Positions 414 through 19,413 of a stretch of DNA of 19,413 bases are shown here, one piece after another. A program made the translations under genes and the position numbers. The notes below the pieces were generated by a model that saw only the letters and a program-made list of their open reading frames with translations, did no database searches and had not been told where the DNA came from. The stretch lies in the IMG/VR virus record IMGVR_UViG_2645727843_000010, one strand, 5' to 3'. Numbering within the stretch: the first letter of the stretch is position 1; the number at the start of each line of letters is the position of its first letter. The DNA is from a virus (taxonomy: Duplodnaviria > Heunggongvirae > Uroviricota > Caudoviricetes).

Positions 414-476
414 ATGAAGGGAGATTCTATCGATGTGGTCAATGGAAGACGGTGACCAGGGATAGGGCTTATGCAT

Positions 477-2408: not shown

Positions 2409-2418
2409 GGAGAACCGT

Positions 2419-3086: not shown

Positions 3087-3149
3087 GTAATTAACCAGAG
3101 TTTTTAACGCACTTAATCGTGCGGGGCTTCTTTTTGCCTGGAGAAAGTC

Positions 3150-3676: not shown

Positions 3677-3900
3677 TGCCGGACAACGTAGATTTCATTC
3701 AGGAACAACAGGCTGAATTACTGGAGCGCCAGATTAACGCGGCAAGGGTAAAACATTGCGGTGTTTCTGCGCTGGTTTGCGAAGAGTGTGACGCGCCAAT
3801 ACCTGCTGCCCGTCGTGCGGCTTATCCGTCAGCCACGCGTTGTGTTTCCTGTCAGTCAGTCTTTGAAGCAAAAAACAAACATTACCGGAGAATGGCATGA
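3676..3900 (+). CDS. TraR/DksA-family C4 zinc-finger protein, 74 aa, P2 orf82-like
   Basis: CxxC...CxxC motif (CEECDAPIP...RCVSCQ) typical of the TraR/DksA zinc finger. Start overlaps the upstream stop (TAATG). Confidence 0.7.
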   Translation: MPDNVDFIQEQQAELLERQINAARVKHCGVSALVCEECDAPIPAARRAAYPSATRCVSCQSVFEAKNKHYRRMA

Positions 3901-4172
3901 GTATTCGTATCGAAATTGGCGAACGTTATGTCGTTACCAGTGACAGCTTTCAGTTTATTCTCCACGAGAAAAAGAGAGCGGAAAGCGGTAAAAACGCCGG
4001 TCAGGAATGGCTGGCGGTGGTTGGTTATTATCCGAAATTAAGCCAGCTCGTTTCCGGCCTGATGCATCACGATATTCTGACCGGAAGCGCAAAGTCTTTT
4101 GCTGATTTAAACGCGCAGGTTGAGCAACTCAGCAAGCGTTGTTCAGAGGCTTTTGGCTCATATGGCCGTTAA
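3897..4172 (+). CDS. Hypothetical early protein, 91 aa, P2 orf83-like
   Basis: ATG at 3897 overlaps the upstream stop (ATGA); 3' end overlaps the A start by 11 nt. Confidence 0.6.
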   Translation: MSIRIEIGERYVVTSDSFQFILHEKKRAESGKNAGQEWLAVVGYYPKLSQLVSGLMHHDILTGSAKSFADLNAQVEQLSKRCSEAFGSYGR

Positions 4173-6447
4173 AGCCTCCGGGCGTTTTGTCCCTCCGTCA
4201 GCATTTGCCGCAGGCACCGGTAAGGCGTTTACCGGTGCTTATGCATGGAACGCGCCACGCGAGGCTGTCGGGCGCGAAAGACCCCTTACACGTGACGAGA
4301 TGCGTCAGGTGCAAGGTGTTTTATCCACGATTAACCGCCTGCCTTACTTTTTGCGCTCGCTGTTTACTTCACGCTATGACTACATCCGGCGCAATAAAAG
4401 CCCGGTGCACGGGTTTTATTTCCTCACATCCACTTTTCAGCGTCGTTTATGGCCGCGCATTGAGCGTGTGAATCAGCGCCATGAAATGAACACCGACGCG
4501 TCGTTACTGTTTCTGGCAGAGCGTGACCACTATGCGCGCCTGCCGGGAATGAATGACAAGGAGCTGAAAAAGTTTGCTGCCCGTATCTCATCGCAGCTTT
4601 TCATGATGTATGAGGAACTCAGCGATGCCTGGGTGGATGCGCATGGCGAAAAAGAATCGCTGTTTACGGATGAGGCGCAGGCTCACCTGTATGGTCATGT
4701 TGCTGGCGCTGCACGTGCTTTCAATATTTCCCCTCTCTACTGGAAAAAATACCGTAAAGGGCAGATGACCACGAGGCAGGCATATTCTGCCATTGCCCGT
4801 CTGTTTAACGATGAGTGGTGGACTCATCAGCTTAAAGGCCAGCGTATGCGCTGGCATGAGGCGTTACTGATAGCTGTCGGGGAAGTCAATAAAGACCGTT
4901 CTCCTTATGCCAGTAAACATGCCATTCGTGATGTGTGTGCACGCCGCCAGGCAAATCTGGAATTTCTTAAATCGTGTGACCTTGAAAACAGGGAAACCGG
5001 CGAGCGCATCGACCTTATCAGTAAGGTGATGGGAAGTATTTCTAATCCTGAAATTCGCCGGATGGAGCTGATGAACACCATTGCCGGTATTGAGCGTTAC
5101 GCCGCTGCAGAGGGTGATGTGGGGATGTTTATCACGCTGACCGCGCCGTCAAAGTATCACCCGACACGTCAGGTCGGAAAAGGCGAAAGTAAAACCGTGC
5201 AGCTTAATCACGGCTGGAACGATGAGGCATTTAATCCAAAGGATGCGCAGCGTTATCTCTGCCGTATCTGGAGCCTGATGCGCACGGCATTCAAGGATAA
5301 TGATTTACAGGTCTACGGTTTGCGTGTTGTTGAACCACACCACGACGGAACGCCGCACTGGCATATGATGCTTTTTTGTAATCCACGCCAGCGTAACCAG
5401 ATTATTGAAATCATGCGTCGCTATGCGCTCAAAGAGGATGGCGACGAAAGAGGAGCCGCGCGAAACCGTTTTCAGGCAAAACACCTTAATCGGGGCGGTG
5501 CTGCGGGGTATATCGCGAAATACATCTCAAAAAACATCGACGGCTATGCACTGGATGGTCAGCTCGATAACGATACCGGCAGACCTCTGAAAGATACTGC
5601 CGCGGCTGTTACTGCATGGGCGTCAACGTGGCGCATCCCGCAATTTAAAACGGTTGGTCTGCCGACAATGGGGGCTTACCGTGAACTACGCAAATTGCCT
5701 CGCGGCGTCAGCATTGCTGATGAGTTTGACGAACGCGTCGAGGCTGCACGCGCTGCCGCAGACAGTGGCGATTTTGCGTTGTATATCAGTGCGCAGGGTG
5801 GGGCAAATGTTCCGCGCGATTGCCAGACTGTCAGAGTCGCCCGTAGCCCGTCGGATGAAGTTAACGAGTACGAGGAAGAAGTCGAGAGAGTGGTCGGCAT
5901 TTACGCGCCACATCTCGGCGCGCGTCATATTCATATCACCAGAACGACGGACTGGCGCATTGTGCCGAAAGTTCCGGTCGTGGAGCCTTTGACTTTAAAA
6001 AGCGGCATCGCCGCGCCTCGGAGTCCTGTCAATAACTGTGGAAAGCTCACCGGTGGTGATACTTCGTTACCGGCTCCCACACCTTCTGAGCACGCCGCAG
6101 CAGTGCTTAATCTGGTTGATGACGGTGTTATTGAATGGAATGAACCGGAGGTCGTGAGGGCGCTCAGGGGTGCATTAAAACACGACCTGAGAACGCCAAA
6201 CCGTCAGCAAAGAAACGGAAGCCCGTTAAAACCACATGAAATTGCACCATCGGCCAGACTGACCCGGTCGGAAAGAATGCAAATTACCCGTATCCGCGTT
6301 GACCTTGCTCAGAACGGTATCAGGCCGCAGCGATGGGAGCTTGAGGCGCTGGCGCGTGGCGCGACCGTAAATTATGACGGGAAAAAATTCACGTATCCGG
6401 TCGCTGATGAGTGGCCGGGATTCTCAACAGTAATGGAGTGGAAATGA
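4162..6447 (+). CDS. A: P2 A protein, rolling-circle replication initiator / nickase, 761 aa
   Basis: The track ORF starts at a TTG at 4120; ATG at 4162 (MAVKASGRF...) gives 761 aa, the P2 A length as recalled. Near-identity to P2 A over the whole length from memory. Confidence 0.95.
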   Translation: MAVKASGRFVPPSAFAAGTGKAFTGAYAWNAPREAVGRERPLTRDEMRQVQGVLSTINRLPYFLRSLFTSRYDYIRRNKSPVHGFYFLTSTFQRRLWPRIERVNQRHEMNTDASLLFLAERDHYARLPGMNDKELKKFAARISSQLFMMYEELSDAWVDAHGEKESLFTDEAQAHLYGHVAGAARAFNISPLYWKKYRKGQMTTRQAYSAIARLFNDEWWTHQLKGQRMRWHEALLIAVGEVNKDRSPYASKHAIRDVCARRQANLEFLKSCDLENRETGERIDLISKVMGSISNPEIRRMELMNTIAGIERYAAAEGDVGMFITLTAPSKYHPTRQVGKGESKTVQLNHGWNDEAFNPKDAQRYLCRIWSLMRTAFKDNDLQVYGLRVVEPHHDGTPHWHMMLFCNPRQRNQIIEIMRRYALKEDGDERGAARNRFQAKHLNRGGAAGYIAKYISKNIDGYALDGQLDNDTGRPLKDTAAAVTAWASTWRIPQFKTVGLPTMGAYRELRKLPRGVSIADEFDERVEAARAAADSGDFALYISAQGGANVPRDCQTVRVARSPSDEVNEYEEEVERVVGIYAPHLGARHIHITRTTDWRIVPKVPVVEPLTLKSGIAAPRSPVNNCGKLTGGDTSLPAPTPSEHAAAVLNLVDDGVIEWNEPEVVRALRGALKHDLRTPNRQQRNGSPLKPHEIAPSARLTRSERMQITRIRVDLAQNGIRPQRWELEALARGATVNYDGKKFTYPVADEWPGFSTVMEWK

Positions 6448-6899
6448 TGGCAAAAATTCACGAGGTAAAGCTGCACGCAAAATATTTTGACCTTGTGCTG
6501 GAAGGAAAGAAACGCGCAGAGTTTCGGAAAAATGACCGTAATTATGAGCGCGGGGACACGTTGATTTTGCATGAATGGGTGCAGGGTGTGTATACGGGGC
6601 GAAAGGTTGAAGCCCGGATAACAGATGTTACTGACTTGTCAGACTGGCTGGAAGATTATGTCTTGCTAAGTATTGAGCTGCTTAATACAGGCGCATATGA
6701 GTTTGTGAACTGGAAAGAACTTAGTGAGCGTGGTCTGGTATTCAGAATTAATCATGAAATTATGCATCAGCTCGGCCTTGCTGTTGTGTATGAACCAGAG
6801 ACGGGGATGTCTGGCGGGGCAGTGGTTGGTGCGGATGGGATATGGAACTATTCAGATGAACAGGTGGAGCGTGCACAGCAAAACGGGTGGCTTGGATAA
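6444..6899 (+). CDS. ASCH/DUF3850-like domain protein, 151 aa, at the P2 orf91 position
   Basis: ATG at 6444 overlaps the A stop (ATGA). The N-terminal ~50 aa (KIHEVKLHAKYFDLVLEGKKRAEFRKNDRNYERGDTLILHEW) resembles the ASCH-like fold. Confidence 0.65.
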   Translation: MMAKIHEVKLHAKYFDLVLEGKKRAEFRKNDRNYERGDTLILHEWVQGVYTGRKVEARITDVTDLSDWLEDYVLLSIELLNTGAYEFVNWKELSERGLVFRINHEIMHQLGLAVVYEPETGMSGGAVVGADGIWNYSDEQVERAQQNGWLG

Positions 6900-7105
6900 T
6901 GCACAGAATACCAGGCGAGATACCGCAGCATAAAACTAAAAATATCAAGCTGATGGCCATTGTTCACCGTCTACAGCAGATTATGGTCAACGAAAATCTG
7001 ACGCCCGATGAGCTGGTCGGGTGTGCCGAAATAGTCCGGGATAATTACGTATGGCTTAACTATATCGGTCAGCCCAGCGCTGCACCGCCACCACGCAGAC
7101 GATAG
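6899..7105 (+). CDS. Hypothetical small protein, 68 aa
   Basis: ATG at 6899 overlaps the upstream stop (TAATG); the track start at 6887 is GTG. No recognisable domain. Lies at the backbone/cargo boundary. Confidence 0.35.
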   Translation: MHRIPGEIPQHKTKNIKLMAIVHRLQQIMVNENLTPDELVGCAEIVRDNYVWLNYIGQPSAAPPPRRR

Positions 7106-7294
7106 AGAACGCAGCCAGCTCAGGATTGGCGGGGGATAGAATAACGAGCATAGTGATGCGATTAGACAAACAGACTGACTGGTACACTTAGGATGGTTAT
7201 AGTGGTTTCTAAGTGCTTTAGCGATACATCTGGTGGACTGTTTTACCAACCTCAGAGTTAGCTGAATTTTTAACAAAATACCATTTTGATAGAT

Positions 7295-7322
7295 TTGCCT
7301 AATTTATTAATTAAACTATACT
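7295..7322 (+). promoter_or_regulatory. Candidate sigma70 promoter for the 78-aa / membrane-protein operon (-35 ttgcct, 16-bp spacer, -10 tatact)
   Basis: Hexamers read from sequence in the AT-rich intergenic region about 90 nt upstream of the 7414 start. Weak -35. Confidence 0.3.
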
Positions 7323-7413
7323 GGACTTATACACAGTGTTCTGTTAGTTGTTAGGTTGGTAAGATATTGTGAGGAGGTGATTACTATCTTGGCATCAATC
7401 AAGTGGAGGTTAA

Positions 7414-7650
7414 ATGATGAATATATTTGAACGTATTATAGGTAAAGCTGCTATTGAAAAGGAAAGAGAACTGGCGAGGAGGCTTGAAGCATCTGGAACA
7501 AACACTGTTGAGGTGGTAGGTCGAGGCGCGATTATCACGTCTAAAGAAGACTTGGCAAGCTCAGATACAGTAAAATTGATGAAAATTAAAGCAAGAAAAA
7601 TAGTTTCTGAGCAGGTAAAGCAAGAAGAAAAAATGGCTAAAGGGAATTAA
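7414..7650 (+). CDS. Hypothetical small charged protein, 78 aa, first gene of a two-gene cargo operon
   Basis: ATG at 7414 with GGAGG 5 nt upstream. K/E-rich and hydrophilic. Stop is 2 nt before the next ATG. Confidence 0.6.
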   Translation: MMNIFERIIGKAAIEKERELARRLEASGTNTVEVVGRGAIITSKEDLASSDTVKLMKIKARKIVSEQVKQEEKMAKGN

Positions 7651-7652
7651 TA

Positions 7653-8414
7653 ATGTTTGCTTTATTAATTATTCCATTACTTGTGAGTGGTTATATTGTA
7701 TTAACCACTCATCCTTATCATTTCTATAGATTACACCGTTATGATGGGCAGTTGTTATATATGAAGTCAGCCGCCTTTGGTCTGTGGTGTTTTATATGGA
7801 CATTGATTATAGCTTACTTAATAAAATGGATATGTCCGAGCTTCCATCCTGTCACGATGGTTCGGGAACAATTAGATCTCAAACTTAGTGACAATGGTAC
7901 TGAAAGAATCATAGGATGGATGATTTTACTTTCATGTGGAACGATATTTTTGGCTTGGATATGGAGTGTCGGTGCTAGATATTTGGTTATATATAGAGCT
8001 AAAATTATAAATTATATCCAAGGGGTAAAGGCTGCCAATATTGATTATGAGAATCTTGTCATGCTAAGGATGAGGCAAGAGCTTATTAATGATAATCCAA
8101 TGGATGAAATATTTTTTGATTCGTTAGTTGATAGACGTTCAATACTTATTACGTTGCAAAATAAAAAGACATATGTAGGAATTGTTAACGCATTAGGTGA
8201 GCCTAACGAGAAAGAAGGACCTAACCAGTATGTTTCAATCTATCCTATTATCTCTGGGTATAGAGATAAGGATTCATTGAAAGTAATCTTGGTGAATGAA
8301 TATAGAGAGCTTGAGGATGCTGATACTAGTATCATCTTTCCACTAAAAGAAATTTCGCAAGTTTCTTGGTTTGATATGGATATTCATAAAATAGTTGAAA
8401 ATAATAAGGTGTAG
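7653..8414 (+). CDS. Hypothetical membrane protein, 253 aa: three predicted N-terminal TM helices plus a ~145-aa soluble C-terminal domain
   Basis: ATG at 7653. Hydrophobic segments at about residues 1-19, 41-63 and 87-109. AT-rich codon usage unlike the phage backbone. No family recognised. Confidence 0.75.
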   Translation: MFALLIIPLLVSGYIVLTTHPYHFYRLHRYDGQLLYMKSAAFGLWCFIWTLIIAYLIKWICPSFHPVTMVREQLDLKLSDNGTERIIGWMILLSCGTIFLAWIWSVGARYLVIYRAKIINYIQGVKAANIDYENLVMLRMRQELINDNPMDEIFFDSLVDRRSILITLQNKKTYVGIVNALGEPNEKEGPNQYVSIYPIISGYRDKDSLKVILVNEYRELEDADTSIIFPLKEISQVSWFDMDIHKIVENNKV

Positions 8415-8417
8415 TAA

Positions 8418-8442
8418 ATGGTCACCTATAAAAGGTGACCAT
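8418..8442. terminator. Bidirectional hairpin between convergent cassettes (atggtcacct-ataaa-aggtgaccat)
   Basis: Perfect 10-bp stem with 5-nt loop, between the stop at 8414 (+) and the stop at 8448 (-); T/A-rich flanks on both sides. Confidence 0.6.
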
Positions 8443-8447
8443 AATGC

Positions 8448-10712
8448 TTATTTTTGACGAATCCTGATTTTTGGTTGTTCACGAACAACAATATCAGTTT
8501 CTTTCCAACCAAGATTATTTATTTCAACCTCGGCTTCGTTGTAGACTGTAGTAGAATTGGCAAGAGATCTTAACGTAATAGCCAATACAGCACGTTGAGG
8601 TGAAGATAGAGGCTCTTGCTCTGCTCGTCTCTGAACATCAAGTTTAAGTCTCCATTGCTCCCCATTTATACCTTGCGGAAATTGTTTTCTATAAACTTTG
8701 ACTGGAGACCATTTGAAGCCATTTTCTATCAGTACCTTTTCAAATAATTCACTCTTTTCTTTTATTTGTGGAATTTTTCCGCTATGTATCCATTTAGCGT
8801 TAACTGGATCATAAGTGTAAGTCCCGAATGACACATCCACATTAGAACGGCAATATTCAGATGGGTAGTCATAATCAAGCGGTGGAGAATAAACGAGTGT
8901 CATAATAATTTCACCTGTGAATTTTCCATCCTCAGTACGTAATGACTGTGGTATTACAAATGGCGTTCTACTGAATTCAATACCTTCTCGGGTATCTATT
9001 TCAAATAGAAATGTAATCTCATTTTTATTGCAACCAATAATATCATTTATATGATCGCTTGGGCGTCCAAATCCTTGATAATTAAACGCATAATGCTCCG
9101 TTTTGGCTGGTGAGTTTTTTAACGCAGAATGAATTAATAGTGCCTTGATACGTTCAGGCGATGGTGAAATAGAACCATTAACATCTAGTTCATGCCACAG
9201 TGATGCCGCTAAACTTGAGATTAACGGTGCTGATAAACTTGTGCCAATACTTTCGCAAAGAGCATTGTCCTCGCCAATAGCTATGATTCCGGTATGTTCA
9301 CAGTTTAATTTACTGTCACAATTACCTCCAAAGTGATTTATCTCTGGTTTGGGTATAAAGGCTGGGCCGGGACCTCTTCTAGAAAAAGATGAAGGTTCAA
9401 ATCTTTTGACCACAGAGTCAGACGATTCTAAATGGGCAACTGAGCCAACAGTTAATGAACGAACAGAATCTGCGGGGGCTGATATTCTGTCATGCCCACC
9501 TAATTCTTGAGGAGGCCAGGTTCGTTGAGGATCATAAATGTAGTTGCCGGATGCTACGACGAAAAGACAATCATGCTCATCATGAAGTGCATTTAAAAAA
9601 TGCCCCAATTCAGAGAAGCTGTCTTCAGAACATGGGGATTGACAACCTAATGACAGATTCCATACACGTACTTCTGGATAGGTGGTCACAGCCTCTCGGA
9701 TAGCTTTCATTAATTGTGGCAATTTGAGCGTACCATCTTTGGGAAAGGCTGCAACATCAACAATTTCAGCTTGGCATTGAGGAAAACCAGCATAGTTATT
9801 CAACCATCTTCCATTAATTGCTAAACTTGCAACCATGTTCCCATGAGAATAGTCGTGTTCTCCTTTTACTAAATCTAAACTATCCCAAATCCATGGCCTA
9901 AGTATGTTGTTATTGGGATCGACTCCGCTATCTATAATTCCGAGTAGTGGATAATGTTTATCCTCTTGAGGTAAGGGAAAATCATCTAGGTCTAGAGTTT
10001 CAGCAGGAATATATTGCGATACTGTATGAGTAAGACCAAATGTTGGCATAGGTTCTAATTTTCGTATGCCAATAAAACTTGCCAGTTGGGCGATGTTATC
10101 ATTCCCTTTTACTTCATATATACTCAAATCTGAACTGATATCATACTTTTTGGGTTTTTGTATTCCTAGTTCATCTGCAAATTCCATTAATTCTTTGTCG
10201 ATACTGCGGTTAGTTGTTCTATCTTTATGGTCAAAGAGTTTCAGAAGAAAACTATCTGATTTATTTTTATCTATAACATCATGGTTAAGACTAAAAGGTT
10301 CGATCTTTTCAATTACAGCAATATGTACTGTTCCATTATGAGAATTAGTGCTATTTTCAATTTTTTTGCGAAGTTGTGCTAACCCTTTTTCAGTAACACT
10401 TATAAGTAATTCTCCAAAATTATCACTGCCTATTACGGGACATGTATTATCACCTAATAGGCTTGATGGGCGATGTGACTTAGCAAGAGCTTTTTCATGA
10501 AGAGTAACTCTAGCCACCGCCGGTATATTGGGCCATTTTTTAAATGAGCTCTGGAAAAAATTTTTAACGTCATCGACTTCTTGTTTGAGTCTATTTTTTA
10601 GACTAGTTGTTACTGTTCGGATAGGTTGTTTCTTTCCGAAATTATATGTTTTTTCAGTAAAATCTTGAGGTGTCGCCTCAATTATTTTTATTGGTCTTTC
10701 TTTGTTACTCAT
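8448..10712 (-). CDS. Subtilisin-like serine protease (peptidase S8), 754 aa; IetS-like
   Basis: Catalytic motifs in canonical order: Asp (GIIDSGVD), His (YSHGNMVASLA), oxyanion Asn (VVASGN), Ser (GTSLSAPLISS). ATG overlaps the upstream ATPase stop (ATGA). Confidence 0.9.
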   Translation of the reverse strand: MSNKERPIKIIEATPQDFTEKTYNFGKKQPIRTVTTSLKNRLKQEVDDVKNFFQSSFKKWPNIPAVARVTLHEKALAKSHRPSSLLGDNTCPVIGSDNFGELLISVTEKGLAQLRKKIENSTNSHNGTVHIAVIEKIEPFSLNHDVIDKNKSDSFLLKLFDHKDRTTNRSIDKELMEFADELGIQKPKKYDISSDLSIYEVKGNDNIAQLASFIGIRKLEPMPTFGLTHTVSQYIPAETLDLDDFPLPQEDKHYPLLGIIDSGVDPNNNILRPWIWDSLDLVKGEHDYSHGNMVASLAINGRWLNNYAGFPQCQAEIVDVAAFPKDGTLKLPQLMKAIREAVTTYPEVRVWNLSLGCQSPCSEDSFSELGHFLNALHDEHDCLFVVASGNYIYDPQRTWPPQELGGHDRISAPADSVRSLTVGSVAHLESSDSVVKRFEPSSFSRRGPGPAFIPKPEINHFGGNCDSKLNCEHTGIIAIGEDNALCESIGTSLSAPLISSLAASLWHELDVNGSISPSPERIKALLIHSALKNSPAKTEHYAFNYQGFGRPSDHINDIIGCNKNEITFLFEIDTREGIEFSRTPFVIPQSLRTEDGKFTGEIIMTLVYSPPLDYDYPSEYCRSNVDVSFGTYTYDPVNAKWIHSGKIPQIKEKSELFEKVLIENGFKWSPVKVYRKQFPQGINGEQWRLKLDVQRRAEQEPLSSPQRAVLAITLRSLANSTTVYNEAEVEINNLGWKETDIVVREQPKIRIRQK

Positions 10713-11872
10713 AATATCTCTCTATAATTCTTAGTTAGCCTTGACACTTTAGCATTTGAAAGCCCTAGTATTTTTGCTATCTTTCGTATTGTAAATCTTT
10801 TGGGATTGTATTCTCTGAGAGTGGTCACAATCTTTATAAGTAAATTATCTTCTTCATCAAATGTAACTCCCTTCGCTTCTAAGATAGCCTCGACTAAAAA
10901 TCGGGTATCGATTTGTTTATTATTGTAAACCAGAGCATGTCGCTCAGATCTTAAGCAGCATTGTTCTATAAATGAGCAGTTTAGCCCTGATGATATTTCC
11001 GCAAGGTCATCAACAAAATCGTCATATGTAGCTTTTATGTTTGAATATTGTTCAAATAGTTGTTTTCTGACTTCAAAATCAGGCAATCCAATAGATATTC
11101 TATACTCAAAGCGCCTCCAAACTGCGCTATCTAGAAGATTTTCATGATTACTTGCAGCAATCAATATTGTTTCTTCAGGTAGATTGTCAATATTTTGCAA
11201 TAAAGAAACCACCACCCTCTTCAGTTCACCTAACTCATGCTGATCATCTCTAGCCTTTGCTAGAGAATCTAGTTCATCTAGAAATAAAACACATGGTGCT
11301 TTACTTGCATACTCAAATAGCTGCCTGATATTTTTAGAAGTAGACCCCAGATATGATGAGACTAAGGAGTCACATCTTGCAGTAAGAAGCGGTAAATTTA
11401 GACAGGATGCAATATATTTTGATGTCAAGGTTTTACCACAACCTGGTGGCCCATATAAAATCATAGAGGATGTCACGCCAAGACCGGCATCCTTTAATTC
11501 TTTAGCTCGTTCAGTGAAAGTCAAAAATTCTTTAATTTTTTTCAGAGTGCTATCTTTCAACAATGGGAGTTGAATTTCAGAAGACGGTTGAGTTACGTCT
11601 GCTAAATCAAATTTAGTTTCTTTATCTACAGGTAATGTATCAAGACGTTCAAAAATAGGTGATGTACTGCGTGATACTTTCTGCAAGTTAAACGTGTTTT
11701 TATCTTGAATACTACCTCTAATGGCTGAAGCAAGCTCAGGCAGCCCCATAGAATCATAGGAACGCGCGAGTTTCGAAGCCTGCCGAACAAAAGCAACTTT
11801 ATCCCCTTTGAGTCCAAGACTGATAAGCTGCGAAAGTATCTCGTTTGTGGTCATTTGTGATACAAACCTCAT
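10709..11872 (-). CDS. Classical AAA+ ATPase, 387 aa; IetA-like
   Basis: Walker A (GPPGCGKT), Walker B (VLFLDELD), sensor-1 Asn (IAASN), arginine fingers (AVWRRF). No strong Shine-Dalgarno seen, so the start is less certain (alternative Met 6 codons in). Confidence 0.88.
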   Translation of the reverse strand: MRFVSQMTTNEILSQLISLGLKGDKVAFVRQASKLARSYDSMGLPELASAIRGSIQDKNTFNLQKVSRSTSPIFERLDTLPVDKETKFDLADVTQPSSEIQLPLLKDSTLKKIKEFLTFTERAKELKDAGLGVTSSMILYGPPGCGKTLTSKYIASCLNLPLLTARCDSLVSSYLGSTSKNIRQLFEYASKAPCVLFLDELDSLAKARDDQHELGELKRVVVSLLQNIDNLPEETILIAASNHENLLDSAVWRRFEYRISIGLPDFEVRKQLFEQYSNIKATYDDFVDDLAEISSGLNCSFIEQCCLRSERHALVYNNKQIDTRFLVEAILEAKGVTFDEEDNLLIKIVTTLREYNPKRFTIRKIAKILGLSNAKVSRLTKNYREIL

Positions 11873-12113
11873 TAATCTGTTGTCTAAATGGCTTATAGGT
11901 GAGACAAATTTCTATTTTAATGTAGTTTATATGTATTTTGGTGAAACGAACACTATGTTTTACATAAATCTTTCAGGTTTGGAGTTCTTGGAGGGCATAG
12001 AGTTGCATCAATTTGCATTCTAATTAGACTTTTTTATTGCTATCGTATTCTACATGTGACTAGGTCTGCCCTTCCTGATGCGTTTGCATTAAAACCTCCC
12101 CATGAAGCGGGCG

Positions 12114-12132
12114 GGCGAGGCGGGGAAAGCAC
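12114..12132. other. Putative cos cohesive-end sequence ggcgaggcggggaaagcac
   Basis: Matches the P2 19-nt cohesive end as I recall it. Sits in a GC-rich block just downstream of Q, where P2 has cos. Confidence 0.55.
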
Positions 12133-12274
12133 TGCGCGCTGGCGGTGGTGCGGATTTTATTTTTTCAGCGTCTGAGCGCGTCGTGACGGCGCTTAGTCTG
12201 CCCGTTGAGGCGTTGGTGTGTCTGCGGGGTGTTTTGTGCGGTGGTGAGCGTGTGAGGGGGTGATGACGGGGTGT

Positions 12275-12296
12275 AAAAAAGCCGCCCGCAGGCGGC
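12275..12296 (-). terminator. Rho-independent terminator after Q (GCCGCC-TGCG-GGCGGC then T6 on the minus strand)
   Basis: GC stem plus a U-tract immediately 3' of the Q stop. Confidence 0.7.
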
Positions 12297-12301
12297 GATG
12301 T

Positions 12302-13336
12302 TCAGCCGTTGTCAGTGTCCAGTGAGTAGTTTTTAAATCGGATGACCTCCTGACCGAGCCAGCCGTTTATCTCGCGGATCCTGTCCTGTAACGGGATAAG
12401 CTCATTGCGGACAAAGACCTTTGCCACTTTCTCAATATCACCCAGCGACCCGACGTTCTCCGGCTTGCCCCCCATCAACTGAAAGGGGATGCGATGCGCG
12501 TCCAGCAGGTCAGCGGCGCTGGCTTTTTTGATATTAAAAAAATCGTCCTTCGTTGCCACTTCACTGAGCGGGATAATTTTAATGCCGTCGGCTTTCCCCT
12601 GTGGGGCATAGAGAAACAGATTTTTAAAGTTATTGCGGCCTTTCGACTTAACCATGTTTTCGCGAAGCATTTCGATATCGTTGCGATCCTGCACGGCATC
12701 GGTGACGTACATGATGTATCCGGCATGAGCGCCGTTTTCGTAATACTTGCGGCGGAACAGCGTGGCCGACTCATTCAGCCAGGCAGAGTTAAGGGCGCTG
12801 AGATATTCCGGCAGGCCGTACAGCTCCTGATTAATATCCGGCTCCAGCAGGTGAAACACGGAGCCGGGCGCGAAAGGTGTCGGCTCATGGAAGGACGGCA
12901 CCCACCAGTAAACATCCTCTTCCACGCCACGGCGGGTATATTTTGCCGGTGAGGTTTCCAGTCTGATGACCTTACCGGTGGTGCTGTAACGCTTTTCCAG
13001 AAACGCATTACCGAACACCAGAAAATCCAGCACAAAGCGGCTGAAATCCTGCTGAGAAAGCCACGGGTGCGGGATAAACGTTGAAGCCAGAATATTGCGT
13101 TTGACGTAAATCGGTGAGCTGTGATGCACGGCAGCACGCAGGCTTTTTGCCAGACCGGTAAAGCTGACCGGTGGCTCATACCATCTGCCGTTACTGATGC
13201 ACTCGACATAATCCAGAATGTCACGGCGGTCGAGTACCGGCACCGGCTCACCAAAGGTGAATGCCTCCATTTTCGGGGCGCTGGCGGTCATTTTTTTTGC
13301 CGCAGGTTGCGGTGTTTTCCCTTTTTTCTTGCTCAT
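12302..13336 (-). CDS. Q: Portal vertex protein, 344 aa
   Basis: ATG (cat at 13334-13336). Length equals P2 Q as recalled; strong recognition. Start overlaps the P stop. Confidence 0.95.
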   Translation of the reverse strand: MSKKKGKTPQPAAKKMTASAPKMEAFTFGEPVPVLDRRDILDYVECISNGRWYEPPVSFTGLAKSLRAAVHHSSPIYVKRNILASTFIPHPWLSQQDFSRFVLDFLVFGNAFLEKRYSTTGKVIRLETSPAKYTRRGVEEDVYWWVPSFHEPTPFAPGSVFHLLEPDINQELYGLPEYLSALNSAWLNESATLFRRKYYENGAHAGYIMYVTDAVQDRNDIEMLRENMVKSKGRNNFKNLFLYAPQGKADGIKIIPLSEVATKDDFFNIKKASAADLLDAHRIPFQLMGGKPENVGSLGDIEKVAKVFVRNELIPLQDRIREINGWLGQEVIRFKNYSLDTDNG

Positions 13337-15108
13337 CAGTAAAACTCCAGAATGGTGGATGTCAGCGGGGTGCTGATACCGGCGGTGAGTGGCTCATTTA
13401 ACAGGGCGTGCATGGTCGCCCAGGCGAGGTCGGCGTGGCTGGCTTCCTCGCTGCGGCTGGCCTCATAGGTGGCACTGCGTCCGCTGCTGGTCATGGTCTT
13501 GCGGATAGCCATAAACGAGCTGGTGATGTCGGTGGCGCTGACGTCGTATTCCAGACAGCCACGGCGGATGACGTCTTTTGCCTTGAGCACCATTGCGGTT
13601 TTCATTTCCGGCGTGTAGCGGATGTCGCGCGCGGCGGGATAGAACGAGCGCACGAGCTGGAACACGCCGACACCGAGGCCGGTGGCATCAATACCGATGT
13701 ATTCGACGTTGTATTTTTCGGTGAGTTTGCGGATGGATTCCGCCTGAGTGGCAAAGTCCATGCCTTTCCACTGGTGACGCTCAAGTATTCTGAATTTGCC
13801 ACCGGCCACCACCGGCGGTGCCAGCACCACGCATCCGGCACTGTCGCCACGGTGTGACGGGTCGTAACCAATCCAGACCGGGCGGGAGCCGAACGGATTC
13901 GCGGCAAACGGCGCATAGTCTTCCCATTCTTCCAGCGTGTCGACCATGCAGCGTTGCAGCTCCTCGAACGGGAATACCGACGCCTTGTCGTCAACAAATT
14001 CACACATGAACAGGTTTTTAAAATCGTCGGCGCTGTTTTCACGTTTGAGCTGCTCAATGTCGAACAGCGTGCAGCCACCTTTCAGGGCGTCCTCAATGGT
14101 GACAATCTGCCGCCACTGGCCGTCCGCACAGAGAAGCCCACCGGCAAGGGCGTTATGACTGACGTCGATTTCCACGCGTTCGGCGGCGCTGGCGCGTCCC
14201 CGGTTGAACAGTTCACCTGACCAGAACGGGTAGGCGTCGTGCGCCAGCGTGGACGGGGTGGAGAAATAGGTCGAACGCAGGTGACTCTGTGAGGCCATAC
14301 CTGATGCCACCTTACGCAGTACCTGAAAATTCGGGATCCAGAAAATCTCGTCGACGTACAGGTCGCCGTTATGGCTCTGTGCGGTGTTGGAGTTGGTGCC
14401 GAGAAAAATCAGTTTTGCGCCGTTATTGCCCAGGACAATCGGGTCACCGGTCAGGTCAACGTCAACCAGCCGGGCAAAGGCGATGATGTATTCACGGAAC
14501 ACATACGCCTGCGTTTTACTGGCCGACAGAAAAATCTGGTTATGGCCGGTTTTCAGGGCGCGCAGCAGCGCCTCGCGGGAAAAATAAAACGTTGCGCCAA
14601 TCTGGCGGGATTTCAGGATATCGCGGATGCGGTGCTCAAGCCCGGCGCGATACCAGTGCAACTGATAGTCGAAAGACTGCTCAAAGAAAATCTGCTCCAG
14701 CTTTTCGATGGCCTCGTCACTGAAAAAATTCTTTTTCGGTTTGCGACGCCCGCCTTTGTTGCGGTTAGCGACGTTCGGATTAAGGTCTGCCTCGTTGCCG
14801 GTCTGACTGTAGCGGTTGACCCGTGCCAGTCGTTCAATCTGGCGTCCCAGCAGGTCAATTTCCTTGAAGTCACCGCCGGTTTTCTGCGGTTTGATGATGA
14901 GCTGGGTCAGCCGCGCTTCCAGACTCATTTCGACACGGCTGATGGGGGCAACGCTGTCCCAGCCGTCGCGCTGTTTCCAGCTCTGCACCGTCGGGCGTTT
15001 CATCTGCAACATGGCGGCAATCTGCGGCACGGAAAACCCCTGCCAGTACAGCAGCGCCGCCTGACGACGCGGGTCGTGCAAAAGAGTGGTGTCTGTGGTG
15101 ATGGTCAT
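13336..15108 (-). CDS. P: Terminase large subunit (ATPase/nuclease), 590 aa from the internal ATG
   Basis: The track ORF extends 10 codons upstream; ATG at 15106-15108 (MTITTDTTLLHDPRRQAALLYWQG...) gives the P2 P length as recalled. Confidence 0.92.
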   Translation of the reverse strand: MTITTDTTLLHDPRRQAALLYWQGFSVPQIAAMLQMKRPTVQSWKQRDGWDSVAPISRVEMSLEARLTQLIIKPQKTGGDFKEIDLLGRQIERLARVNRYSQTGNEADLNPNVANRNKGGRRKPKKNFFSDEAIEKLEQIFFEQSFDYQLHWYRAGLEHRIRDILKSRQIGATFYFSREALLRALKTGHNQIFLSASKTQAYVFREYIIAFARLVDVDLTGDPIVLGNNGAKLIFLGTNSNTAQSHNGDLYVDEIFWIPNFQVLRKVASGMASQSHLRSTYFSTPSTLAHDAYPFWSGELFNRGRASAAERVEIDVSHNALAGGLLCADGQWRQIVTIEDALKGGCTLFDIEQLKRENSADDFKNLFMCEFVDDKASVFPFEELQRCMVDTLEEWEDYAPFAANPFGSRPVWIGYDPSHRGDSAGCVVLAPPVVAGGKFRILERHQWKGMDFATQAESIRKLTEKYNVEYIGIDATGLGVGVFQLVRSFYPAARDIRYTPEMKTAMVLKAKDVIRRGCLEYDVSATDITSSFMAIRKTMTSSGRSATYEASRSEEASHADLAWATMHALLNEPLTAGISTPLTSTILEFY

Positions 15109-15281
15109 GAATACCTCGCCGTGATGAATACACGGCAAGGCTACTGAGTCGCGTCCCGCGATTCGCTAAGGTGCTGTTGTGTCAGTGATAAGCCATCCGG
15201 GACTGATGGCGGAGGATGCGCATCGTCGGGAAACTGATGCCGACATGTGACTCCTCTAATCACTATTCAGGACTCCTGACA
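15109..15281. promoter_or_regulatory. Divergent P / O intergenic region; expected site of Ogr-dependent late promoters
   Basis: Position only. I scanned for a TGT-N12-ACA dyad and did not find a clean match. Confidence 0.3.
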
Positions 15282-16316
15282 ATGGCAAAAAAAGTCTCAA
15301 AATTCTTTCGTATCGGCGTTGAAGGTGACACCTGTGACGGGCGTGTCATCAGTGCGCAGGATATTCAGGAAATGGCCGAAACCTTTGACCCGCGTGTCTA
15401 TGGTTGCCGTATTAACCTGGAACATCTGCGCGGCATCCTGCCTGACGGTATTTTTAAGCGTTATGGCGATGTGGCCGAACTGAAGGCCGAAAAGATTGAC
15501 GATGATTCGGCGCTGAAAGGCAAATGGGCGCTGTTTGCGAAAATCACCCCGACCGATGACCTTATCGCGATGAACAAGGCCGCGCAGAAGGTCTACACCT
15601 CAATGGAAATTCAGCCGAACTTTGCCAACACCGGCAAATGTTATCTGGTGGGTCTGGCCGTCACCGATGACCCGGCAAGCCTCGGCACGGAATACCTGGA
15701 ATTCTGCCGCACGGCAAAACACAACCCCCTGAACCGCTTCAAATTAAGCCCTGAAAACCTGATTTCAGTGGCAACGCCTGTTGAGCTGGAATTTGAAGAC
15801 CTGCCTGAAACCGTGTTCACCGCCCTGACCGAAAAGGTGAAGTCCATTTTAGGGATGTTTGTTTTTATGCGCCAGACGCTGCCGCACCAGACCATGCAGC
15901 GTGAATCGGATTATCGCTGGCCGTCAAATTCCCGTATTGGTAAACGGGATGCCTATCAGTTTCTCGGTGTGGGTGAGGAAAACATGACGCTTGCCGGTGT
16001 GCTTTATCCCGAACTGACCGGCGGAAAGCTGACGATGACCACGCTCAGGCTGATGGCAGAGGAAGGCCGGGCGTGGCCGTTGCTGGATGGCACCGGCATG
16101 ATTTACGGCATGTATGTCATCAGCAAGGTGAGTGAAACAGGGAGTATTTTCTTTGCAGACGGCACACCCCGGAAAATTGATTTTACGCTGTCACTCACCC
16201 GCGTTGATGAATCACTGGCCGCGCTTTATGGCGATATCGGTAAACAGGCGGAATCGCTCATCGGTAAGGCTGGCAGTATGGCGACCAAATTCACGGGTAT
16301 GACGGGGGCGGGATAA
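15282..16316 (+). CDS. O: Chimeric ORF, 344 aa: N-terminal 189 aa of capsid scaffold/protease O fused in frame to about 155 aa of tail protein U; deletion junction near 15848
   Basis: ATG at 15282 (MAKKVSKFFRIGVEGDTCDG... is the P2 O N-terminus). After ...TEKVKSI the sequence switches to LGMFVFMRQTLPHQTMQRESDYRWPSNSRIGKRD..., which is P2 gpU-like. The track ORF begins 22 codons upstream without a Shine-Dalgarno. Confidence 0.85.
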   Translation: MAKKVSKFFRIGVEGDTCDGRVISAQDIQEMAETFDPRVYGCRINLEHLRGILPDGIFKRYGDVAELKAEKIDDDSALKGKWALFAKITPTDDLIAMNKAAQKVYTSMEIQPNFANTGKCYLVGLAVTDDPASLGTEYLEFCRTAKHNPLNRFKLSPENLISVATPVELEFEDLPETVFTALTEKVKSILGMFVFMRQTLPHQTMQRESDYRWPSNSRIGKRDAYQFLGVGEENMTLAGVLYPELTGGKLTMTTLRLMAEEGRAWPLLDGTGMIYGMYVISKVSETGSIFFADGTPRKIDFTLSLTRVDESLAALYGDIGKQAESLIGKAGSMATKFTGMTGAG

Positions 16317-17479
16317 TGCTGGATGCGCTGACATTTGATGCAGGCAGTACGCTGACGCCGGATTACATGCTGATGCTCGACAGCAGGGATATTACCGGCA
16401 ATATCAGCGACCGTCTGATGAGCATGACCCTGACGGATAACCGGGGCTTTGAGGCTGACCAGCTTGATATTGAACTGAACGATGCCGACGGGCAGGTCGG
16501 GCTGCCGGTTCGTGGCGCTGTCCTGACGGTTTATATCGGCTGGAAAGGTTTTGCCCTGGTATGCAAAGGGAAATTTACCGTTGATGAGGTTGAACACCGG
16601 GGCGCTCCGGATGTGGTCACCATCCGCGCCCGGAGTGCAGATTTTCGCGGGACGCTCAATTCCCGCCGGGAAGGCTCCTGGCATGACACCACGCTCGGTG
16701 CGATTGTTGAGGCGATAGCCTCCCGTAACAGGCTGGAAGCCAGTGTCGCTCCGTCACTGGCCGGAATTAAAATCCCGCACATCGACCAGTCGCAGGAGTC
16801 TGATGCGAAATTCCTGACCCGTCTTGCAGAACGCAACGGCGGTGAGGTCTCGGTAAAAATGGGAAAACTGTTGTTTCTCAAAGCGGGGCAGGGGGTGACG
16901 GCCAGCGGTAAAAAAATCCCGCAGGTCACCATAACCCGCAGCGACGGCGACCGCCACCATTTTGCGATTGCTGACCGTGGAGCCTATACCGGCGTAACGG
17001 CAAAGTGGCTTCACACCAAAGACCCGAAGCCGCAAAAGCAGAAGGTAAAACTGAAACGCAAAAAGAAAGAAAAACACCTGCGCGCACTGGAGCACCCGAA
17101 AGCGAAACCAGTCACGCAGAAGAAAGCGCCAAAAGTACCGGAAGCGCGCGAAGGTGAATACATGGCCGGTGAGGCTGACAACGTTTTTGCCCTGACCACG
17201 GTATATGCCACGAAAGCACAGGCCATGCGTGCTGCTCAGGCGAAGTGGGACAAACTGCAACGGGGCGTTGCGGAGTTCTCCATCATCCTGGCTACCGGTC
17301 GTGCAGATATTTACACGGAAACACCGGTCAGAGTGTCAGGCTTTAAGCGCGTCATAGACGAGCAGGACTGGACAATCACTAAGGTGACACATTTTCTGAA
17401 TAATAGCGGCTTCACGACGTCCCTGGAGCTTGAGGTCAGGCTTTCTGATGTGGAGTACGAAACAGAAGATGATGAGTGA
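16316..17479 (+). CDS. D: Tail protein D, 387 aa
   Basis: ATG overlaps the upstream stop (TAATG). Length and sequence match P2 gpD as recalled. Confidence 0.92.
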   Translation: MLDALTFDAGSTLTPDYMLMLDSRDITGNISDRLMSMTLTDNRGFEADQLDIELNDADGQVGLPVRGAVLTVYIGWKGFALVCKGKFTVDEVEHRGAPDVVTIRARSADFRGTLNSRREGSWHDTTLGAIVEAIASRNRLEASVAPSLAGIKIPHIDQSQESDAKFLTRLAERNGGEVSVKMGKLLFLKAGQGVTASGKKIPQVTITRSDGDRHHFAIADRGAYTGVTAKWLHTKDPKPQKQKVKLKRKKKEKHLRALEHPKAKPVTQKKAPKVPEAREGEYMAGEADNVFALTTVYATKAQAMRAAQAKWDKLQRGVAEFSIILATGRADIYTETPVRVSGFKRVIDEQDWTITKVTHFLNNSGFTTSLELEVRLSDVEYETEDDE

Positions 17480-17560
17480 TGTTTTTATTTTATCTATTTG
17501 TTTTATAAGGGTAAATTAACTAAAATGGCACCATCAACAAAACCGGAAGAGGTGCTCGCG

Positions 17561-17779
17561 ATGTTTCATTGTCCTTTATGCCAGCATGCCGCACATGCGC
17601 GTACAAGCCGCTATATCACTGACACGACAAAAGAGCGTTATCACCAGTGTCAGAACGTGAATTGCAGCGCCACGTTCATCACTTATGAGTCGGTACAGCG
17701 ATACATCGTGAAGCCGGGAGAAGTCCACGCCGTAAGACCGCACCCGTTGCCGTCAGGGCAGCAAATTATGTGGATGTAA
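17561..17779 (+). CDS. ogr: Ogr late-gene transcription activator, zinc finger, 72 aa
   Basis: ATG at 17561 (MFHCPLCQHAAHARTSRYITDTTKERYHQCQNVNCSATF...), four-Cys zinc finger. The track ORF starts at an upstream TTG. Matches P2 Ogr / E. coli OgrK length from memory. Confidence 0.95.
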   Translation: MFHCPLCQHAAHARTSRYITDTTKERYHQCQNVNCSATFITYESVQRYIVKPGEVHAVRPHPLPSGQQIMWM

Positions 17780-17792
17780 TTACAAACAGGAA

Positions 17793-17816
17793 GCCCCTCA
17801 GTCGAGGGGCTTTTTT
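17793..17816 (+). terminator. Rho-independent terminator after ogr (gcccctc-agtc-gaggggc then T6)
   Basis: Perfect 7-bp GC stem followed by TTTTTT. Confidence 0.8.
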
Positions 17817-17879
17817 GTCGATGTGGTCAATGTGTGGACGTGACCAGAAATAAATCCTTTTATTTCATTGTATTACGCG

Positions 17880-17967
17880 TAAAAAATAAGCCCGTGTAAG
17901 GGAGATTACACAGGCTAAGGAGGTGGTTCCTGGTACAGCTAGCATTTTATGGGTTATGTTTTTCAGC
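17880..17967 (-). ncRNA. cyaR: CyaR (RyeE) Hfq-dependent sRNA
   Basis: Reverse complement reads GCTGAAAAACATAACCCATAAAATGCTAGCTGTACCAGGAACCACCTCCTTAGCCTGTGTAATCTCCCTTACACGGGCTTATTTTTT, which matches CyaR as I recall it, including the CCACCTCC anti-Shine-Dalgarno region and the terminator hairpin plus U-tract. Ends are within about 2 nt. Confidence 0.88.
17881..17907. repeat. attR core, 27 bp, identical to 477-503; also the 3'-terminal 27 nt of cyaR
   Basis: Exact repeat read from sequence. Confidence 0.85.
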
Positions 17968-18002
17968 GAAACGGATGATAACCTTAATAAATGCAGCTGT
18001 AT

Positions 18003-18018
18003 GTGATCGGTTTCTAAG
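18003..18018. promoter_or_regulatory. Putative CRP site upstream of cyaR (TGTGA-N6-TCTAA)
   Basis: One consensus half-site and one weak half-site, centred about 43 nt upstream of the inferred CyaR 5' end, close to a class II position. cyaR is known to be CRP-activated. Confidence 0.5.
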
Positions 18019-18051
18019 AATTTTCCATCCGGGAAAAATAATCGAAATTAA

Positions 18052-19413
18052 TCACTTACCGTGGGGATTACGCGTGGTTTCCCCGGAGAAATTACGCATC
18101 AGCAGCGCGTAATTGAGCTCAAGATCCTGCGGGACCGGGAGCCACACAGTATAACCATCGCCTGGTGCTATCGGCATAGCTTCGCCTTTGGCGTTTTCCA
18201 TGTGCTCAAGGGTAAAATTAATGTTGCCTTGCGGCGTCATCAGCTCAAGGCTGTCGCCAACGGAGAATTTATTTTTCACCGCTACCGCCGCGAGGTCCCC
18301 CTTGCGCTCACCGGTAAACTCACCAACAAACTGCTGGCGGTCAGAAACTGAATAACCGTATTCGTAGTTCTGATAATCGTCGTGAGTATGACGACGCAGG
18401 AAACCTTCGGTATAGCCACGATGCGCCAGACCTTCCAGAGTTTCCAGCAGGCTGGTATCGAACGGTTTTCCCGCAGCGGCGTCATCGATAGCTTTGCGGT
18501 AAACCTGTGCGGTGCGTGCACAATAGTAGAAAGATTTGGTACGACCTTCGATTTTCAGCGAATGCACGCCCATTTTGGTCAGGCGTTCTACATGGGCGAT
18601 GGCGCGCAGATCTTTCGAGTTCATGATGTAAGTGCCGTGCTCATCTTCAAACGCGGTCATATACTCGCCCGGACGCTGGGCCTCTTCGATCATAAACACT
18701 TTGTCGGTTGGTGCGCCGATACCCAGCGTCGGCTCAACATTTTGCACCGGAATCGGCTCGTACTTGTGTACGATGTTGCCAACATCATCTTCTTTCCCTT
18801 CCTGGACGTTGTACTCCCAGCGGCAGGCGTTGGTGCAGGTGCCCTGGTTCGGGTCGCGCTTGTTGATATAGCCAGAGAGCAGGCAGCGACCGGAGTAGGC
18901 CATGCACAGCGCGCCGTGAACGAAGATCTCGATCTCCATATCCGGCACCTGATTGCGGATCTCTTCAATCTCTTCCAGCGACAGCTCGCGAGAGAGGATC
19001 ACGCGGGTCAGGCCCATTTGCTGCCAGAATTTCACCGTCGCCCAGTTCACGGCGTTAGCCTGCACCGAAAGGTGGATCGGCATTTCAGGGAAGTGCTCAC
19101 GCACCAGCATAATCAGCCCTGGATCGGACATAATCAGCGCATCCGGCCCCATTTCCACCACCGGTTTCAGGTCACGGATAAAGGTTTTCAGCTTGGCGTT
19201 GTGCGGTGCAATGTTGACCACGACATAAAACTTTTTCCCCAGCGCGTGGGCTTCATTGATGCCGAGCTGAAGATTTTCGTGGTTGAATTCGTTGTTGCGC
19301 ACACGCAGGGAATAACGCGGCTGGCCCGCATAAACAGCATCTGCGCCATAAGCGAAAGCGTAACGCATATTTTTCAGCGTTCCCGCCGGGGAAAGGAGTT
19401 CCGGTTTAAACAT
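18052..19413 (-). CDS. yegQ: Peptidase U32-family protein (YegQ/TrhP-like), 453 aa, host chromosomal flank
   Basis: Complete ORF whose ATG is the last 3 nt of the window. Sequence recognised as E. coli YegQ from memory; adjacent to cyaR as in E. coli. Confidence 0.88.
   Translation of the reverse strand: MFKPELLSPAGTLKNMRYAFAYGADAVYAGQPRYSLRVRNNEFNHENLQLGINEAHALGKKFYVVVNIAPHNAKLKTFIRDLKPVVEMGPDALIMSDPGLIMLVREHFPEMPIHLSVQANAVNWATVKFWQQMGLTRVILSRELSLEEIEEIRNQVPDMEIEIFVHGALCMAYSGRCLLSGYINKRDPNQGTCTNACRWEYNVQEGKEDDVGNIVHKYEPIPVQNVEPTLGIGAPTDKVFMIEEAQRPGEYMTAFEDEHGTYIMNSKDLRAIAHVERLTKMGVHSLKIEGRTKSFYYCARTAQVYRKAIDDAAAGKPFDTSLLETLEGLAHRGYTEGFLRRHTHDDYQNYEYGYSVSDRQQFVGEFTGERKGDLAAVAVKNKFSVGDSLELMTPQGNINFTLEHMENAKGEAMPIAPGDGYTVWLPVPQDLELNYALLMRNFSGETTRNPHGK

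Follow-up and report, generated by a model that had tools for sequence, protein, structure and literature searches.

The right border of the element analysed here raises the question of where a host small RNA gene ends and a prophage begins, and which of the two partners has contributed the bases that they share. The initial annotation of this 19,413-nt stretch of DNA (below, the window) had proposed that a prophage is integrated at the 3' end of cyaR, and this proposal is borne out by a P2-type integrase, a P2 attP, and an attachment core that coincides with the final 27 nt of the gene. We conclude, with a probability of about 0.97, that positions 504–17880 constitute a deleted P2 (Peduovirus) prophage residing at the canonical P2 attachment site at the 3' end of cyaR, between trhP (yegQ) and yegR. 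No observation speaks against this explanation. In the P2 literature, the cyaR-end site goes by the name of locI.

The host partner is well defined. The cyaR gene (ryeE), encoding an Hfq-dependent, CRP-activated sRNA, occupies positions 17881–17967 on the minus strand. The Rfam model CyaR_RyeE (RF00112) matches the same strand at 17884–17969 with 100.7 bits (gathering score, 47), covering model positions 1–85 of 85, and the gene is identical to the annotated K-12 cyaR at 87 of 87 nucleotides, the coordinates having been placed by BLAST of the K-12 locus. The interval assigned to CyaR at the outset, 17880–17967, is correct to within 1 nt; its lower bound required adjustment, as the annotated gene reaches down to 17881. 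The region upstream of the gene is likewise identical between the window and K-12 (120/120 nt). It contains the motif TGTGA-N6-TCTAA at 18002–18017, read from the sequence and centered approximately 42 nt upstream of the cyaR start, which is putatively the CRP site of the cyaR promoter, judging from the consensus and from published CyaR work. Further upstream lies the host gene trhP (yegQ; an open reading frame at 18052–19413, minus strand), annotated as trhP both in K-12 and in NZ_CP135488.

The gene ends in an intrinsic terminator, identified by a terminator scan and by the MFE structure, whose hairpin spans positions 17889–17916 on the minus strand. An 11-bp stem with one U.G pair closes the 6-nt loop UCUCCC, and the hairpin folded alone has a free energy of -15.5 kcal/mol. 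Its 5' arm runs from 17916 to 17906, the loop from 17905 to 17900, and the 3' arm from 17899 to 17889, after which the U-run begins; the U-tail, i.e., the Hfq-binding 3' end, is thus present on this rho-independent terminator.

Exactly two copies of the 27-mer AAAAAATAAGCCCGTGTAAGGGAGATT are present in the window, both on the plus strand, at 477–503 and 17881–17907, and no further copy with up to three mismatches was found elsewhere in it. The chance expectation for such a 27-mer, estimated from 200 dinucleotide shuffles, is 0.00. The exact repeat extends to 28 bp (476–503 and 17880–17907) and, if two mismatches are tolerated, to 35 bp. The right-hand copy, the attR core, corresponds to positions 61–87 of the K-12 cyaR, so that the claimed identity of a 27-bp core with the last 27 nt of the gene is exact over its whole length. 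Of the terminator, it contains the 3' arm with the U-run, the loop, and two of the eleven bases that make up the 5' arm; the remaining nine lie outside the core in unique host DNA. The terminator stem had been said to cross the boundary between core and host DNA, and the end of the core at 17907 does fall inside it. The left-hand copy, the attL core, is an orphan duplicate of the last 27 nt of cyaR and is followed by the P2 P' arm, again as had been described. Folding of this orphan was no better than that of shuffled sequences (z = -0.04) and yielded no terminator hairpin; a role of the attL core as the terminator of int was rejected on the same grounds.

The phage side of both junctions is equally recognizable. 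In P2 (AF063097), the same 27 bases are annotated as the attP core (24356–24382), and an attP rebuilt from the two junctions, with the P arm and the core supplied by the right end and the P' arm by the left one, is approximately 97% identical to the annotated P2 attP and spans all annotated positions of the latter (Int P arm, IHF, Int core, Cox, and Int P' arm). The arm-type consensus of P2-type integrases is tgTGGaCa (PMC3448106), and direct repeats fitting it are found on both sides of the core. In the P arm, the Int-binding region at 17818–17845 (plus strand; P2 protein_bind 24293–24320) contains TGTGGTCA at 17822–17829 and TGTGGACG at 17833–17840; in the P' arm, the region at 591–617 (plus strand; P2 protein_bind 24470–24496) contains TGTGGACA twice, at 592–599 and 603–610. 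Two further sites are predicted by position only: an IHF site of the P arm at 17849–17882, mapped from the P2 protein_bind feature 24324–24357, and a Cox-binding region of the P' arm at 520–593, mapped from the AF063097 protein_bind feature 24399–24472 through the attP alignment.

The tyrosine integrase gene int (583–1596, minus strand; Pfam Int_N PF24624 and Phage_integrase PF00589) is separated from the attL core by 80 bp, and its product is identical to P2 Int at 336 of 337 residues. It is accompanied by cox (2133–2408, plus strand; Phage_Cox, 143.6 bits), encoding the excision directionality factor and Pc repressor, and, at the opposite end, by the late-gene activator ogr (17561–17779, plus strand; Ogr_Delta, 76.9 bits; P2 ogr 24036–24254), which is convergent with cyaR; gpD was recognized by Pfam as well. 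Downstream of ogr, a rho-independent terminator that serves both ogr and the F operon is located at 17790–17813 on the plus strand (hairpin scan; P2 annotation 24265–24288), with a predicted fold of -21.8 kcal/mol (z = -3.95). Alignment with the P2 genome (AF063097) yields five blocks of 96–98% nucleotide identity, namely att-int-C' (window 476–1841), cox-B-A-orf91' (2155–6667), cos (12085–12132), Q-P-O' (12114–15850), and U-D-ogr-att (15849–17907). Compared with P2, the prophage is missing approximately 18.6 kb (P2 coordinates 3736–22323, from part of O through T), which comprise the genes for the head, for lysis, and for most of the tail. Its immunity region differs as well, positions 1842–2154 of the window having no counterpart in P2, and an IetAS system takes the place of tin/old. 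The prophage is 17.4 kb long instead of 33.6 kb and is hence unable to form particles by itself.

The left flank of the window is host DNA. It contains yegR (1–318, plus strand), an open reading frame that bears this name, at the corresponding position, in the annotations of NZ_CP135488 and K-12 and whose product had no match in a Pfam search, and the B flank of attL (319–476), which in prophage-free E. coli lies directly downstream of cyaR and is contiguous with it at 100% identity. The comparison with an empty site had been named beforehand as decisive. We constructed a synthetic empty site of 803 nt by joining window positions 101–503 to 17908–18307 and searched for it in 5,426 complete E. 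coli genomes. It was found contiguous and 100% identical in many of them, between yegR and yegQ/trhP, so prophage-free E. coli retain the 27-mer at the 3' end of cyaR; at least 80% of the empty site was covered in one place in 4,562 of the 5,426 genomes.

The occupied junctions were counted in the same set of genomes. A contiguous attL junction (probe: window 384–623) is present in 814 genomes and a contiguous attR junction (probe: window 17761–18027) in 1,195 (~22%), K-12 included, the latter number being higher because remnants such as that of K-12 keep attR alone. The arrangement ogr-P arm-core-cyaR is thus common, occurring in about one complete E. coli genome in five. In K-12, the left end of the remnant lies inside the attL core, where the equivalent of window position 494 is joined to that of 17267, within gene D, while the attR junction is the same as in the window, with 4 mismatches in 330 nt. 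The RefSeq record of K-12 annotates the cryptic prophage PR-X so that it overlaps the last 18 nt of cyaR. A practical consequence is that annotation pipelines should not cut cyaR short at prophage borders.

Insertion at the end of cyaR is the canonical, published site of P2; it is already known and very common, and for the window itself the significance is small, as this is a textbook P2 lysogen junction. The primary work on P2 attachment is reportedly that of Yu, Bertani and Haggard-Ljungquist in 1989, Yu and Haggard-Ljungquist in 1993, and Sylwan et al. in 2010. The integration of P2 at locI and the K-12 remnant PR-X (ogrK-yegZ) share with the window the 27-bp core, the P and P' arms, Int (at the 336/337 residues given above), cox, ogr, and the host position. 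In the E. coli W genome paper (PMC3032704, Table 2), "cyaR RNA" is listed as the insertion site both for the P2-type prophages of strains W and B and for the ogr-D' remnant of K-12. For P2-type prophages of E. coli W, B, and Crooks, the same table gives rybB as an attachment site, and the sdsR locus is a prophage attachment site in Salmonella (PMC3333887). These two are likewise enterobacterial sRNA loci that serve as recurrent integration hotspots, but they differ from the cyaR case in the sRNA, in the core, and in the integrase specificity.

The likeness to integrases that target tRNA genes, drawn in the initial annotation, also holds. Sites of the tRNA or tmRNA type are used by phage 186 (a tRNA-Ile gene), HP1 (tRNA-Leu), and Fels-2/SopE-phi (ssrA), while P2-type integrases have been described as mostly using intergenic sites, cyaR not being named there (PMC3448106). 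As in those systems, the stretch of att identity in the window starts within a stem-loop of a structured RNA gene and continues to the 3' end of the gene, which is regenerated at one junction and left as an orphan fragment at the other; the crossover may fall within the loop of a symmetric hairpin. The case differs from them in that an Hfq-dependent sRNA is targeted and that the hairpin serves as its transcription terminator and not as an anticodon or T arm. The window is in this respect a clean example of an sRNA terminator used as an attachment site, as other phages use tRNA genes.

The roles of Int, IHF, and Cox are established P2 biology and are reflected in the annotation of the P2 record. 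At this locus, P2 Int, a heterobivalent tyrosine recombinase, would bind the arm-type TGTGGACA repeats of the P and P' arms together with core-type sites, while IHF would bend the P arm. The attB core with its right flank forms the dyad-symmetric CyaR terminator AAGCCCGTGTAA-GGGAGA-TTACACAGGCTT, and the two stem arms most likely represent inverted core-type Int sites, with the loop as the overlap region. Strand exchange would take place inside the 27-bp identity common to attP and attB. Given that the phage copy covers everything from the loop through the end of the U-run, the order P arm-core-cyaR body at attR would rebuild a full-length cyaR, and attL would retain a non-functional orphan of 27 nt. 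Excision would be directed by Cox acting at the sites mapped to 520–593. The gene at attR is indeed unchanged, in agreement with the claim that integration regenerates an intact cyaR.

The two cores of the window are identical and hence uninformative about the crossover point. We therefore scanned IMG/VR for junctions with a degenerate core. In contig 640753023_000011, attL consists of the E. coli flank, GCCCGTGT, and P', and attR of the P arm, GCCTGCGT, and the E. coli cyaR, so that the polymorphic bases of the 3' arm are of the phage type at attR and of the host type at attL. In contig 2713896897_000015, the core alleles are the other way round; the left flank of its attL resembles a P arm, which suggests integration beside a resident remnant. 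In both heteroallelic contigs, the alleles at core positions 13 and 15 go together with the left flank. The exchange therefore falls to the right of position 15, within positions 16–27 (GTAAGGGAGATT), a segment that includes the loop. It also follows from the segregation of core alleles that a lysogen carries phage DNA, in the physical sense, as the U-run and 3' arm of its CyaR terminator. The claim that the phage core supplies the sRNA terminator is, taken literally, correct, the polymorphic 3'-arm bases at attR in the lysogen 640753023_000011 being those of the phage. The first base past the core in attL varies by phage, being T, G, or C in different attL junctions.

The use of this site is not confined to E. 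coli. A scan with the CyaR seed, taking one genome per species, yielded 120 loci from many enterobacterial genera, at which the loop of the CyaR terminator is conserved and the stems are variable. A P2-type P arm directly follows the cyaR U-run in approximately 14 species, in five of them together with ogr; genera and species with such P arms include Citrobacter, Buttiauxella, Scandinavium, Trabulsiella, Enterobacter, Huaxiibacter, E. albertii, and S. enterica diarizonae. Among the IMG/VR junctions, other types of P' arm adjoin cores of the ACGCAGGC type, which corresponds to the cyaR 3' end seen in non-Escherichia genera. The occurrence of P arms after cyaR in many genera, taken together with the variant cores in IMG/VR, indicates that P2-like phages use the site across the family. 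Imperfect CyaR stems, i.e., those with U.G pairs or mismatches, were considered as a mark of overwriting by phages in 118 species and were dropped, since U.G stems are common where yegS directly follows cyaR.

These observations bear on the direction in which the shared sequence has been copied. A reading that adds to the main explanation, and that we hold tentatively at somewhat less than even odds, reverses this direction: the 27-bp match would be due to the present cyaR 3' end of E. coli, together with the flank downstream of it, being the fossil attR of an older P2-like element, and not to the copying of a pristine host gene by the phage. The "empty" site would then be a scar re-used by modern P2. 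Several lines of evidence point this way. Firstly, positions 430–460 of the host flank (TCGATGTGGTCAATGGAAGACGGTGACCAG, plus strand) resemble the Int-site region of a P2-type P arm far beyond chance and can be described as its relic, with one TGTGGTCA arm-type repeat kept: the local alignment to 17818–17848 scores 38, against 16.5 ± 2.1 and a maximum of 28 in 500 shuffles. Secondly, yegS begins 83–125 nt past the CyaR terminator in most Enterobacteriaceae, including Escherichia sp. E1V33, and in E. coli approximately 0.9 kb, comprising the P-arm relic, a hairpin, yegR, and an AT-rich spacer, separates the two genes, the homology of E. coli to E1V33 resuming exactly at the terminator U-run. Thirdly, the 5' arm of E. 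coli is shared by E1V33 and E. albertii, whose 3' arm, ACGCAGGC, is different. Finally, overwriting of the 3' arm, from phage to host, is seen directly in present-day lysogens.

Against this stand the results of the corresponding searches. A degenerate attL core was sought on the yegS side of the yegR segment, where only a T-run proved to be shared, and the search for phage homologues of YegR returned none. Nor did any phage record yield a P arm closely similar to the relic, the only matches to it being two records that include the host flank and a weak match in 186. Further, the P2-type 3' arm (ACACGGGC in E. coli) is also present in Kluyvera and Enterobacter genomes in which yegS adjoins cyaR, and U.G stems are common at unoccupied cyaR-yegS sites, so the E. 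coli allele could be a product of ordinary drift. Repeated rewriting of the CyaR 3' end by P2-like phages, with the E. coli site as a fossil attR, is accordingly a possibility to which we assign slightly less weight than to its negation. If true, it would mean that the last 27 nt of the E. coli CyaR are phage-derived, including the 3' arm of the terminator, which sets Hfq binding and termination efficiency.

Hybrid terminators of host and phage origin were observed in other lysogens. Those of the L116/L021 type have a predicted energy of -15.8 kcal/mol, and that of the L027 type contains a C.A mismatch and reaches -11.6 kcal/mol, compared with -15.5 kcal/mol in the window. Under repeated rewriting, these lysogens may represent the process in action. 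Together with the P-arm relic, such hybrids could matter modestly for the evolution of sRNA 3' ends and for the site choice of P2.

For a P2 lysogen junction of the kind present in the window, we would expect no functional consequence for CyaR, normal expression being inferred from K-12, which has the same junction. The opposite view, that the prophage alters the output of CyaR, either by antisense read-through from ogr and the late operon or through a new downstream context that changes termination and read-through, seems improbable to us. It draws on the convergence of ogr and cyaR, the ogr stop codon being only about 100 nt from the cyaR 3' end. However, a strong annotated terminator, the hairpin of -21.8 kcal/mol described above, follows ogr, and cyaR, its terminator, and 120 nt of its promoter region are all unchanged. 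The concern about transcripts reading from ogr into antisense CyaR is weak, because ogr has this terminator of its own and K-12 shares the junction; moreover, ogr is silent in a repressed P2 lysogen. K-12 is also the strain in which the normal 87-nt CyaR was defined, reportedly on Northern blots, and the same length is given by the K-12 annotation; in effect, the Northern blot called for at the outset already exists for this strain. As to termination, the CyaR terminator was leaky in a reporter, with approximately 41% read-through (PMC9765468), and in the lysogen such read-through would enter P-arm and ogr antisense sequence and not the yegR flank.

The deletion within the prophage leaves an in-frame gpO'-'gpU fusion ORF at 15282–16316. 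The O'-'U junction of this deletion (15849/15850) occurs in none of the 5,426 complete E. coli genomes; in principle, an error in assembling the source contig could have produced it. While the uniqueness of this junction makes an assembly error within the element possible, the idea that the att repeat itself arose by chance, through the target-site duplication of a transposon, or as an artefact of assembly or duplication is refuted by the shuffles (zero matches expected for a 27-mer), by the precise empty sites, by the identity of the repeat with the annotated attP core of P2 and the P2 arm sites on its flanks, and by the presence of the same junctions in 814 (attL) and 1,195 (attR) finished genomes, and a length of 27–28 bp far exceeds that of transposon target duplications in a window that contains no transposase genes.

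Two minor observations remain. The IMG/VR contig IMGVR_UViG_2695420394_000006 differs from the window at five positions over 8219–19413, none of them in the att sequences or in cyaR. The IetAS defence system occupies the cargo position of tin/old, with IetS encoded at 8448–10712 (908 bits) and IetA at 10709–11872 (438 bits).

A P2-type P arm, an Int-binding arm of the phage attachment site, lies directly after the cyaR U-run in approximately 14 of the 118 enterobacterial species sampled, with or without an accompanying ogr gene (loci L141, L154, L168, L174, L181, L189, L193, L195, L199, L205, L210, L224, L233, and L244). The 3' end of cyaR thus serves P2-like phages as an attachment site family-wide.

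In some natural lysogens, the phage copy of the 27-bp att core has other bases at positions 13 and 15 than the host copy. The junctions compared were those of the lysogen contigs L116 and L007 (IMGVR_UViG_640753023_000011) and L083 and L046 (IMGVR_UViG_2713896897_000015), as well as L021, L044, L094, and L027. The CyaR terminators of the core-mismatched lysogens are hybrids, with the 5' arm derived from the host and the 3' arm from the phage. The hybrid terminator of L027 contains a C·A mismatch, and its predicted folding energy is -11.6 kcal/mol, compared with -15.5 kcal/mol for the terminator in the window. Comparison of the junction sequences in these lysogens places the crossover in core positions 16–27.

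A relic of the Int-binding region of the P2 P arm is recognizable in the host sequence that flanks the "empty" attB (window 416–476, chiefly 430–460). It retains one TGTGGTCA repeat and has a similarity score of 38, versus 16.5 ± 2.1 in shuffled sequences. The last 10 nt of the core, AAGGGAGATT, are present again at 417–426. This second copy, together with the P-arm relic, suggests an older, decayed P2-like integration at the "empty" E. coli site. The spacer between yegR and cyaR also holds a perfect 12-bp hairpin, GAGCACGATGCC...GGCATCGTGCTC-like, at 380–412, with a U-tail on neither strand. An 8-bp inverted repeat, GGGCTTAT/ATAAGCCC, at 462–469 and 482–489 spans the boundary between the bacterial flank and the core. 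Both attB and attL have this repeat, and attR lacks it; where CyaR transcription reads through at the empty site, its two arms could base-pair in the resulting RNA.

The distance from the CyaR terminator to the yegS start is 83–125 nt in most Enterobacteriaceae, and in E. coli the two are separated by about 0.9 kb containing yegR. When window 1–476 was compared with Escherichia sp. E1V33 (L155, 2380–2640) and with locus L002 (2596–3400), homology between E. coli and E1V33 was seen to restart exactly at the T-run of the terminator. Neither Pfam nor a search for phage homologues yielded a match for yegR.

The left end of the ogrK-yegZ remnant in E. coli K-12 falls inside the attL core (window 494 / 17267 versus K-12 locus 4313–4315). 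Core positions 1–18 are retained there and fused to gene D with a 3-bp overlap, which identifies the remnant as the product of a deletion extending from inside attL into D.

The prophage in the window has itself lost a block of genes. Alignment to P2 shows that P2 coordinates 3736–22323 (~18.6 kb), comprising the head, lysis, and most tail genes, are missing, and that gpO (residues 1–~190) is joined in frame to gpU in a single ORF (15282–16316, junction 15849/15850; Pfam Phage_GPO and GpU). The junction had no match in any of 5,426 complete E. coli genomes, and therefore is either strain-specific or an assembly artifact.

The cargo hotspot that houses tin/old in P2 is taken up in this prophage by the defence pair IetAS, which PADLOC detected at 8448–11872 on the minus strand (IetS, 754 aa, 908 bits; IetA, 387 aa, 438 bits). 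Family searches gave no match for the neighbouring ORFs 7414–7650 and 7653–8414, and assigned ORF 6411–6899 to the ASCH/DUF3850 proteins. In the alignment to P2, window 1842–2154 has no nucleotide match; this segment takes in the part of C, the repressor gene, that encodes the N-terminus (the C ORF has a Pfam HTH_3 match), the region of the Pe/Pc operators, and the beginning of cox. The immunity specificity of this prophage probably differs from that of P2. Finally, the IMG/VR contig IMGVR_UViG_2695420394_000006, compared over window 8219–19413, shows five differences from the window, at 13208, 15079, 16286, 16423, and 17668.
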